From an uncultured Methanolobus sp. (GTDB lineage Archaea; Halobacteriota; Methanosarcinia; Methanosarcinales; Methanosarcinaceae), in NCBI GenBank assembly GCA_963675495.1, contig OY776215.1, positions 2,400,001 to 2,464,000 of the forward strand: a stretch of DNA of 64,000 nt, read 5' to 3'. The first letter of the stretch is position 1, and each line of letters begins with the position of its first letter. A program made the translations under genes and the position numbers. Below, piece after piece: positions 9,412 to 11,211 of this stretch. The notes beneath the pieces were generated by a model, which was not told the origin of the DNA, searched no databases, and was given only the letters and a program-made list of their open reading frames with translations.

Positions 9412-9647
9412 GATAAGACCACAACTTCAATTATTACTATAAATAATTTCATATTAACAGAGGTTGCCTTAATATAAAATAAGTTGTGACTGGATGACAT
9501 TCCTGGAAGATTGCACGGTAGAAGATAAGTTCTTCAAAATCATGGAGGATGTGAACAGTATCTGCTCAACACTGGATTGTTCGATGGAGATGGTGTAAAT
9601 GAGTCATATCTATGGACGTTGAACATAAAAATAGTAAAAAACACTGG

Positions 9648-11018
9648 TCAGTGCTCTTTGCGTCTTTTTCTTTTCCTATACAAAGCAAATGCAGCCATTG
9701 TTATCAGTGAAACTGATGCAAGTATTCCAAATCCTGGTGTTGATGTTTCGTCCTTACTACTAATTCCTGTTCCTTCTTCTATAACAGAGCCTAACAAAGT
9801 TTCTGCCATATCAAGGTTATCTGTGGCACGTTTCATATTATGAATTCCAAAGCTGCCGTCAGATTCCACTTCGCTTATGTAGAACAGTGCATTGTTGTAG
9901 TTTTCAAGTTGTGCATCATAACTTGCATTGTTGCTTATCATTGTAAGGGCCATGCTTGCATTTTCTTCAAGGACTTCCAGTTCTTTGAGTTTATTTTTAA
10001 TCGTTTCCTGATTTAAATCTAAAATGTTTGAAAGGGATACATCATGGCAGTCATCGCACTCGTTGTCCACCGGGACATCGTCATGGGACATAACATGGCA
10101 TTTTTTGCATATGTTGCCAGAATTGGGATCAGAAAGTAATGTCGGTTCGAAATTGAATGAGTGTCCTGTATTTGTTATTTCATCTTCTTTTGTCATCATT
10201 GCCATGTGACAATCAATACAGCCAAGGTTGACTGCATGCACCCCGTTGGTGTATATTGACCCGTTGTACATTTCCCACTGTGTGTACCTTACAATGGTTG
10301 TGTTCCCGTCCGGTTCAGCACCGGCGGAATTATGGCAGCTTGCACATAGTTGTGTTGGTGTGGTTCTTATCTTGGTGCTATGTGGATTATGGCATACAAT
10401 GCAGGTAATCCTCCATTCAGTTATGTCCTCTGTATCCGGCATACTGGCCTGGCTTCTGCCATATGGGTCAACATTTCCAATGTTCATCATGGCACCTTCA
10501 GTGCTCTTGCAGGATACACAGGTGCTCCGGTTAAGCACTATTTTGTCTTCAATATCAGATGGCTCCGAATGACTCGCCATCGTTTCCGGATCGAACTCAA
10601 TGCTATCGTATTCGTTCCACTCTTTGTAGACTTCTTCATGTTGTCCTGTATGGCAGTCTCCACAAAGTTCTGCAGATATGTTTGACTGTGGTATTGTTTC
10701 AGAAGGGTTTATGGTATGTGCGTCAAAACCCTCCACAGGAGGCTGGTGACACATTTCGCATTCAGGTGATTCCCACACCACTTCTCCATACTATTTGATG
10801 TATAGGCGTGCTGTACTGGCTCTGTGGCAGGGTAAGCATGATTCTGCATCTGGATTTTCACTACTTAACACTGGTTCGGCGTAGTGACGGGATCCATTCC
10901 ATGCATCATATTCTTCCAGATGGCAAATTTCACAATCTTCTGTCAATGCTGCAGTTACAACTGTTCCTGATAAAACAGCTAATAAAAGAGCAATAAAACC
11001 CCCAGTTACTGATTTCAT
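9648..11018 (-). CDS. Secreted multiheme cytochrome c (9 CxxCH + 1 CxxCK) with PGF-CTERM anchor, containing one in-frame TAG at codon 76 (pyrrolysine read-through or nonsense mutation)
   Basis: ORFs 10791-11033 and 9648-10781 are in the same frame: ...TAC ATC AAA TAG TAT GGA GAA GTG GTG TGG...; GGGTGA RBS and signal peptide only on the upstream part; TPGFG + TM + RKRKRRK tail. Confidence 0.85.
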
Positions 11019-11211
11019 AGCTATCACCCACACTTCTGTAATAAAAGATGTAAATGTCCGGTATATAGGTGTTTGTATGGATATTATGAAATAAACAGAT
11101 CAACGGGGGGATGTGGTGCAACGGAATATGAATTTAAAAAAGGGTATTGGCAAAGTATACGAATACTCTACCTTGAGTTGAAATGTAAATTGAATATCAG
11201 ATCAAATGCGT

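Follow-up and report, generated by a model that had tools for sequence, protein, structure and literature searches.

The cytochrome gene and its in-frame amber codon

The stretch of DNA analysed here (the window) comprises 64,000 nucleotides of contig OY776215.1 and belongs to the complete 2.87-Mb genome of an uncultured Methanolobus sp. (G000). On its minus strand, positions 9648..11018 hold a gene of 456 codons plus TGA (9650-9648), which forms a single reading frame only if the TAG at codon 76 (10791..10793, minus) is read through. We consider this probably a live gene for an exported, surface-anchored c-type cytochrome with ten hemes, whose full-length product would be made only when the pyrrolysine (Pyl) tRNA, Pyl-tRNA(CUA), decodes UAG 76. 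Between the ATG at 11018 and the terminal TGA there is exactly one internal stop, at 10793-10791, and read-through gives a product of 456 amino acids in which this candidate pyrrolysine codon lies 11 residues past His65 of heme motif 2, in the context RLYIK-TAG-YGEVVWESPECEMCH. The listing of open reading frames (ORFs) splits the gene into separate ORFs at 10791..11033 and 9648..10781. A preliminary description of this DNA had proposed that the two are one frame with the TAG as its sole lesion, and re-translation gave the same result.

Upstream of the TAG, the gene carries a Sec-type signal peptide read from the sequence (about residues 1-24, MKSVTGGFIALLLAVLSGTVVTAA, 10947..11018, minus), a Shine-Dalgarno-like GGGTGA located 5 nt before the ATG (11024..11029, minus), of which GGGTG is kept in G000 and in the relatives G001 and G019, and heme motifs 1 and 2 (C29EICH and C61LPCH, 10824..10934, minus), all as the preliminary description had them. 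Downstream, heme motifs 3-10 follow at 10044..10760 (minus) in the order CEMCH, CGDCH, CVSCK, CIVCH, CASCH, CIDCH, CKKCH and CDDCH, assigned like the first two from sequence and alignment. The earlier count of eight downstream motifs is right, but not all of them are CxxCH: seven are (C87, C119, C206, C225, C267, C304 and C321), while C167-K171 (10506..10520, minus) reads CVSCK, the Lys-ligated motif of NrfA and octaheme nitrite reductase (ONR) type, at a position where the wider family has CxxCH. The total is ten motifs, nine CxxCH and one CxxCK. In the same way, the downstream "membrane anchor" first described is a hydrophobic C-terminus, although it is better named a putative PGF-type archaeosortase sorting signal, consisting of PGF, a hydrophobic stretch and RKRKRRKEH (9651..9737, minus; profile scores and sequence).

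The TAG was seen again in the sequencing contigs. A contig piece of a second sample (X4) covers 10742-10843 with no differences, TAG included, although that sample shares both the organism label and the study and so is not fully independent. X1 is also identical but may be the very source of the sequence, and X7 leaves the site uncovered. A cold-seep metagenome contig (X5) with about 95% identity also spans the gene; it contributes nothing on codon 76. Public annotation of the orthologues cuts the gene into a 75-aa piece and the rest, naming the former "NapC/NirT family cytochrome c" in Methanolobus bombayensis and "hypothetical protein" in another Methanolobus. Once pipelines have split it into a 75-aa "cytochrome" and an anchorless remainder, the gene is miscounted in inventories of multiheme cytochromes and of the potential for extracellular electron transfer in methylotrophic methanogens.

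Conservation of codon 76 and pyrrolysine decoding

The host has complete pyrrolysine machinery. The pyl genes, which the preliminary description had proposed to look for in the genome, were found there: ARAGORN locates a tRNA-Pyl(cta) at C1:1714997-1715068, and pylS (381.8 bits), pylB (553.3 bits), pylC (518 bits) and pylD (353.1 bits), all four above the curated cut-offs, are clustered at C1:1740133-1743825, outside the window. Some 25 kb separate pylSBCD from the tRNA-Pyl gene, which sits amid methylamine methyltransferase genes and not directly upstream of pylS. The mttB gene of G000 holds one in-frame TAG, and mtmB- and mtbB-like ORFs are also split by TAG in a genome-wide scan for interrupted genes that used crude ORF proxies and no gene caller.

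The read-through protein was searched against 60 relatives and G000, and the hits were translated; the genus is represented by 36 genomes (35 relatives plus G000), of which 10 have this locus type. TAG stands at codon 76 in four of the eight intact orthologues, namely those of G000, G001 (82% identity), G019 (66%) and G010 (49-50%), and in a truncated copy in G016. The remaining four, in G009, G033, G026 and G006, have ATG (Met) at this codon. The copy in G012 is broken by three other stops around codon 76 and cannot be scored. The question of whether orthologues keep the TAG or swap it for a sense codon is therefore answered both ways, with TAG or ATG as the only codons seen, and stop-free homologues span the site. 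The presence of TAG at the same codon in other species is the strongest argument against chance or error; this conservation excludes both the recent nonsense mutation and the sequencing error that the preliminary description had kept as fallbacks. Moreover, pylS is present in all nine relatives carrying the cytochrome locus, which indicates that Pyl decoding was not lost in the ATG lineages. Genuine decay looks different from the TAG genes: L016 is truncated, L008 contains three other stops, and in L049 the CxxCK is destroyed by a second stop.

Other searches for the locus type were less productive. Three records of the type (M. profundi, M. bombayensis and M. vulcani) came from a scan of genome contigs, but around codon 76 their translations are the same as those of L007, L017 and L027, so that they are not independent; the orthologues in the records of M. 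profundi Mob M and M. bombayensis DSM 7082 carry the TAG. Metagenome contigs scanned with the eight-sequence alignment gave six relatives, none of the TAG/ATG locus type, and a search with the 75-aa piece gave P0119 as the sole match.

In the codon alignment, synonymous sites are saturated, with a proportion of synonymous differences of 0.64-0.73 for G000 or G001 against G019 and for G000 against G010. The ratio of nonsynonymous to synonymous change (dN/dS) is 0.09-0.25 downstream of the TAG and 0.12-0.55, on few sites, upstream of it. Selection downstream of the TAG, a point on which the preliminary description had wanted a test, is thus purifying, and all heme motifs past the TAG are intact. 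The codons flanking the TAG show synonymous changes while the TAG itself stays, and the four TAG genes are identical at only 15 of 60 fourfold-degenerate sites and at 173 of 402 amino-acid columns. The TAG is thus conserved across orthologues whose synonymous sites are saturated. In the maximum-likelihood tree, the locus type (A+B clade) has support of 100/100; one branch, (G019,(G000,G001)), is all TAG, and in the other G010, with TAG, is sister to the four ATG genes, a placement from which it follows that TAG is ancestral and that one switch to ATG took place. Two bases must change to turn TAG into ATG, and none of the orthologues shows an intermediate codon.

Directly 3' of the TAG or ATG, the nine nucleotides TAT GGA GAA (10782-10790, minus), which contain GGAG, are identical in 8/8 orthologues, as against only 5 of 44 fourfold sites identical in all eight.

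Two more distant homologues carry a TAG of their own. In Methanococcoides sp. FTZ1 (L050:2911-4308), an otherwise intact family member has one in-frame TAG at a Gln-aligned site ("...SYDAQLENY..."), which could be a second, independent amber codon in the cytochrome family or a recent nonsense mutation. In Methanohalophilus euhalobius WG-1MB (L049:2941-4356), TAG replaces a conserved Trp two to three residues from codon 76 and, with the second stop already mentioned, the copy is a pseudogene.

Family, fold and surroundings of the cytochrome

The cytochrome belongs to the NrfA / octaheme nitrite reductase / OcwA superfamily. It matches several multiheme families in Pfam, including Cytochrome_C7, Cytochrom_C552 and Cytochrome_C554, and a profile of 16 homologues compared with PDB sequences retrieved OcwA, the nonaheme terminal reductase of Thermincola potens (6i5b, E 2.6e-20), and the S-layer undecaheme cytochrome of Carboxydothermus (6qvm, E 1.2e-18), followed by MccA, octaheme nitrite reductase and NrfA. 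An AlphaFold2 (AF2) model from 16 sequences was unusable, with a predicted local distance difference test score (pLDDT) of 42.7, and the model used was built from a 73-sequence alignment (pLDDT 83.5, predicted template modelling score 0.79; helices 329-358, 365-387 and 395-424). Its top match in Foldseek is OcwA (E 2e-9), and in VIA-align the Z scores are 19.5 for TvNiR, 19.2 for Trichlorobacter ONR and 18.8 for both NrfA and OcwA, tied within 1 Z, with OcwA (323 residues) giving the highest identity at 27%. Overall, the structural matches reach Z 18.4-19.5 over 270-327 residues and share the superfamily fold of a heme core with a C-terminal three-helix bundle. The predicted architecture consists of a c554-like module (hemes 1-4), an NrfA-like module (hemes 5-9) with the three-helix bundle, and one additional heme, C304KKCH308, whose insert also holds His312. 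Not all family members have the heme-2 module: it is accessory and is missing from the subgroup formed by L014, L026, L015 and L052.

TvNiR, Trichlorobacter ONR and NrfA, at the top of the structural matches, share with the cytochrome the C-terminal helical bundle and the CxxCK motif, here C167VSCK171, but the cytochrome has ten hemes and not eight or five. With the NCBIfam models of NrfA it scores 18.1 and 16.8 bits, where the cut-offs are 595 and 692.5, and because these scores fall so far short we place the protein in the superfamily without calling it a nitrite reductase; a Methanococcoides homologue is named NrfA subunit by NCBI. The family consensus HHPQxEM aligns to R244-Y245-T-Q-W-E-M, with Tyr in place of the second His, and from the NrfA literature we take the catalytic His to be that of the HP motif above the active heme. 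At heme 5, 44 of the 73 aligned sequences have CxxCH and 20, including the Methanosarcinaceae group, have CxxCK, which looks like a lineage-specific switch to an NrfA-like Lys ligand. In the sister subgroup with Met76, heme 5 is wholly deleted.

OcwA is at once the best profile match and the structure of highest identity, and it is described as having the same c554-like four-heme and NrfA-like five-heme modules, a three-helix bundle and a location at the cell surface (PMC6703420). All nine motifs equivalent to those of OcwA are present in the cytochrome, although heme 5 is bound by CxxCH in the former and by CxxCK in the latter. Hemes 2 and 5 of OcwA are reported to be five-coordinate, with His-His motifs above them (PMC6703420), whereas these motifs read H127-E128 and R244-Y245, by alignment, in the cytochrome. 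The cytochrome also differs in its extra heme (C304KKCH), its archaeal host, its putative PGF-type anchor and its TAG codon.

Regarding export and attachment, the tail scanned alone scores 24.4 bits against Heimdall-CTERM (cut-off 24) and 15.1 bits against PGF_CTERM (TIGR04126, cut-off 24.5), and as a sequence it matches archaeal exosortase-type sorting signals only marginally. The genome encodes an archaeosortase A (ArtA, 265.9 bits) and contains two cytochrome c assembly genes (Cytochrom_C_asm). Upstream of the gene, a block resembling a B recognition element and TATA box (CATACAAACACCTATATAC, 11061..11079, minus) holds the most invariant columns among six aligned upstream regions and may act as the promoter; the pattern CATACAAAyAnCTAWATA, about 45-60 nt upstream of the start, is kept in 6/6 aligned orthologues. 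T-rich runs just past the stop (9626..9643, minus) could, by their sequence, be an archaeal terminator. A zinc-ribbon gene (treble-clef, PF23477; 11212-11442, minus) lies directly upstream, and this arrangement is conserved in synteny at the orthologous loci. No functional link emerges from the neighbouring genes, which encode a Na+/H+ exchanger with TrkA domains, a sensor kinase, a NosD-like protein and the zinc-ribbon protein.

Readings of the amber codon and known systems

TAG 76 very probably encodes pyrrolysine, an insertion that we infer from the comparison of orthologues. We hypothesize that Pyl-tRNA and release factor compete at codon 76. Termination would leave a precursor of 75 residues and, after removal of the signal peptide, a diheme peptide of about 50 residues without anchor, and insertion of Pyl would lead to a mature decaheme protein of about 430 residues, exported by the Sec route, loaded with heme by a Ccm system and attached to the surface via its PGF-type C-terminus. 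Such competition implies that the yield of full-length protein would be set by the pool of charged tRNA-Pyl. By analogy with RdmS of Methanosarcina acetivorans, the amount of cytochrome may be coupled to Pyl supply: RdmS is described as made in a long and a short form, its UAG being read as Pyl or as a stop, and pyl genes as at least 4-fold higher on trimethylamine (PMC12626013), and in the same species tRNA-Pyl charging is reported to follow demand (PMC13663744). Retention of the TAG suggests that the residue itself, the requirement for read-through, or both are selected, and the Met that replaces it in four species would indicate that the site seems to need a long, flexible side chain.

Several observations weigh against this proposal. 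TAG closes 244 of the 2379 crude ORF proxies of G000 (about 10%; median read-through extension 10 aa), which means that UAG is still often a stop in this genome. In the family alignment of 73 sequences, column 76, next to a conserved aromatic residue, is Gly in 45 and, together with the four ATG orthologues, this indicates that Pyl is not essential to the fold or to the chemistry of the family; nor, judged from the alignments, is it a conserved ligand there. In HMMER alignments, the counterpart of position 76 is Ala in OcwA and Thr in 6qvm, neither of which is a heme ligand. Residue 76 falls in a loop of the heme-2 module that is specific to the locus type, and since pLDDT drops below 50 at residues 66-78 of the AF2 model, the residue is not placeable relative to heme 2. 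No RNA element like PYLIS, the pyrrolysine insertion sequence, emerged in the approximately 120 nt from the TAG of the four TAG genes, where 20 predicted pairs show no compensatory changes, in an alignment in which one of the four sequences (L007) is offset by about 22 nt. Finally, although a freely drifting codon would keep all three TAG bases with a probability of only about 0.016, which favours selection, this figure is rough and derives from only four related sequences.

Pyl might instead be tolerated without being selected: drift would have brought the TAG into a permissive loop, read-through would be sufficient and replacement would not yet have happened, with Pyl chemistry and any gating irrelevant. 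The variable, poorly modelled loop would suit this explanation, as would the Gly of most family members, the Met of the four orthologues and the TAGs at other places in homologues (the Gln-aligned site of L050 and the Trp position of the L049 pseudogene); native proteins whose Pyl probably came from neutral drift are also mentioned in the literature (PMC12626013). However, of the nine codons that differ from TAG by one base, eight specify an amino acid, and drift should have changed a neutral site; instead the TAG was retained in four lineages in which few fourfold sites remain identical, while the sole replacement seen, ATG, is the two-base change without intermediates noted above. We regard unselected tolerance, then, as unlikely. 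A dead gene is far less probable still. That the TAG is an inactivating mutation or an assembly error might be read from public annotation, which takes it as a stop and calls a 75-aa protein, and some relatives of the locus have truly decayed (L016 and L008), but the same TAG recurs in three other intact orthologues down to 49-50% identity and in contigs of the second sample, the low dN/dS extends downstream of it, and the gene retains an intact signal peptide, C-terminal signal and promoter-like block along with all ten heme motifs.

We give equally little credence to the idea that termination at codon 76 is intended, with a functional secreted diheme peptide and a remainder that is either dispensable or re-initiated at the GTG codons 80/81 behind the GGAG in TATGGAGAA. 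A product starting after the TAG would have no signal peptide and could not reach the Ccm machinery, by which heme is attached outside the membrane, yet purifying selection acts on its eight heme motifs; that a selected downstream part has no signal for export contradicts termination followed by re-initiation. What speaks for it is the invariance of TAT GGA GAA, with its GGAG, directly after the TAG or ATG in all eight orthologues, the GTG GTG that follows in G000 and the use of UAG to close about one in ten ORF proxies; TATGGAGAA, however, is also present in the ATG orthologues, where re-initiation is unneeded, and in those four species both parts are plainly one protein.

A more specific role for the residue, for which we see only a slim chance, is that Pyl76 caps heme 2 as sixth ligand, or that its electrophilic imine binds small nitrogen compounds (ammonia, hydroxylamine, methylamines) at a distal pocket. 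Heme 2 of OcwA, of cytochrome c554 and of MccA is five-coordinate and substrate-accessible. Residue 76 would lie in the loop after heme 2, a Met thioether would act as the ligand where ATG replaces TAG in four species, and clade A has His-Glu in place of the neighbouring His-His motif. If true, pyrrolysine would have a role in redox or heme chemistry and would serve catalysis outside methyl transfer, neither of which turned up in searches of the literature on pyrrolysine. A Pyl-containing cytochrome likewise did not turn up there, with the restriction that the lists of putative Pyl proteins supplementary to PMC12626013 fall outside the literature covered and may include it.

Regarding the systems in which UAG is known to be decoded, the gene resembles those of MtmB, MtbB and MttB in having a single in-frame UAG in an otherwise intact sequence, conserved among Pyl-decoding Methanosarcinaceae. 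In these three enzymes Pyl is a catalytic residue. They are cytoplasmic, corrinoid-dependent and of unrelated fold, whereas the cytochrome is an exported heme protein whose residue 76 is replaceable by Met and whose TAG, in the four TAG genes, is followed by no conserved RNA element that we could see. To our knowledge, pyrrolysine is firmly tied to methylamine methyl transfer, and the few other Pyl proteins reported are thought to be drift-acquired or poorly conserved. By kind, the cytochrome would be a further UAG-encoded Pyl protein, one for which the comparative evidence for selection is unusually good. RdmS offers a precedent for amber gating in a gene other than a methyltransferase, with an internal UAG and truncated and full-length forms that are described as Pyl-dependent (PMC12626013), but it is a cytoplasmic signalling sensor kinase, and in the cytochrome the TAG comes early, so that termination at codon 76 removes about 83% of the protein together with the anchor.

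A parallel in other organisms is given by the selenocysteine multiheme cytochromes of Geobacter (ExtKL type), where a conserved in-frame stop encodes a non-standard amino acid and annotation had split the gene in two; such a cytochrome was first predicted from a conserved in-frame UGA (PMC1914089). Those proteins are bacterial, with UGA, selenocysteine and an insertion machinery of their own, and as the cytochrome scores only 11.7 bits against NF040886 (cut-off 250), the Geobacter case serves as an analogy and not as a membership. A conserved UAG in an exported cytochrome would be an unusual use of pyrrolysine outside the methylamine enzymes. It makes it possible to test whether Pyl has a function beyond methyltransferases, and whether Pyl-decoding archaea use ambiguous reading of UAG to set the amount of a protein by Pyl supply.

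Within G000, the genome-wide scan revealed no other clear single domain architecture interrupted by TAG besides the methyltransferases, with two short candidates (C1:7500-8087 and C1:1122662-1124722) left aside. The long coding-like extensions past a TAG comprised five methylamine methyltransferase genes and eight pairs of neighbouring genes in the same frame; the eight were rejected as single interrupted domains, being adjacent genes that share a frame. In these pairs (L058-L065), the coding parts are separated by one TAG plus 0-42 codons, and read-through with Pyl would fuse each pair. They lie at C1 1032071-1034797, 2258699-2262022, 1174693-1177599, 2725639-2727276, 1523244-1524917, 2520874-2522544, 1626991-1628136 and 1966935-1967816, and comprise URO-D/MtaA-like with histidine kinase, T2SSE with T2SSF, two ADP-PFK/GK copies, inositol monophosphatase with NAD kinase, ABC ATPase with CbiQ, tetrapyrrole methylase with HemD, an unknown region with HhH-GPD, and an RVT_3-like case. 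Among about seven frames of G000 with at least three CxxCH motifs, a TAG falls inside the coding part only in the cytochrome gene described here; two other multiheme candidates with a TAG in the same stop-to-stop frame were rejected, the TAG being upstream of the start. A further multiheme cytochrome candidate, with eight CxxCH motifs (C1:476339-477943), also ends in a PGF-type signal (LPGFESLL...RKRV).

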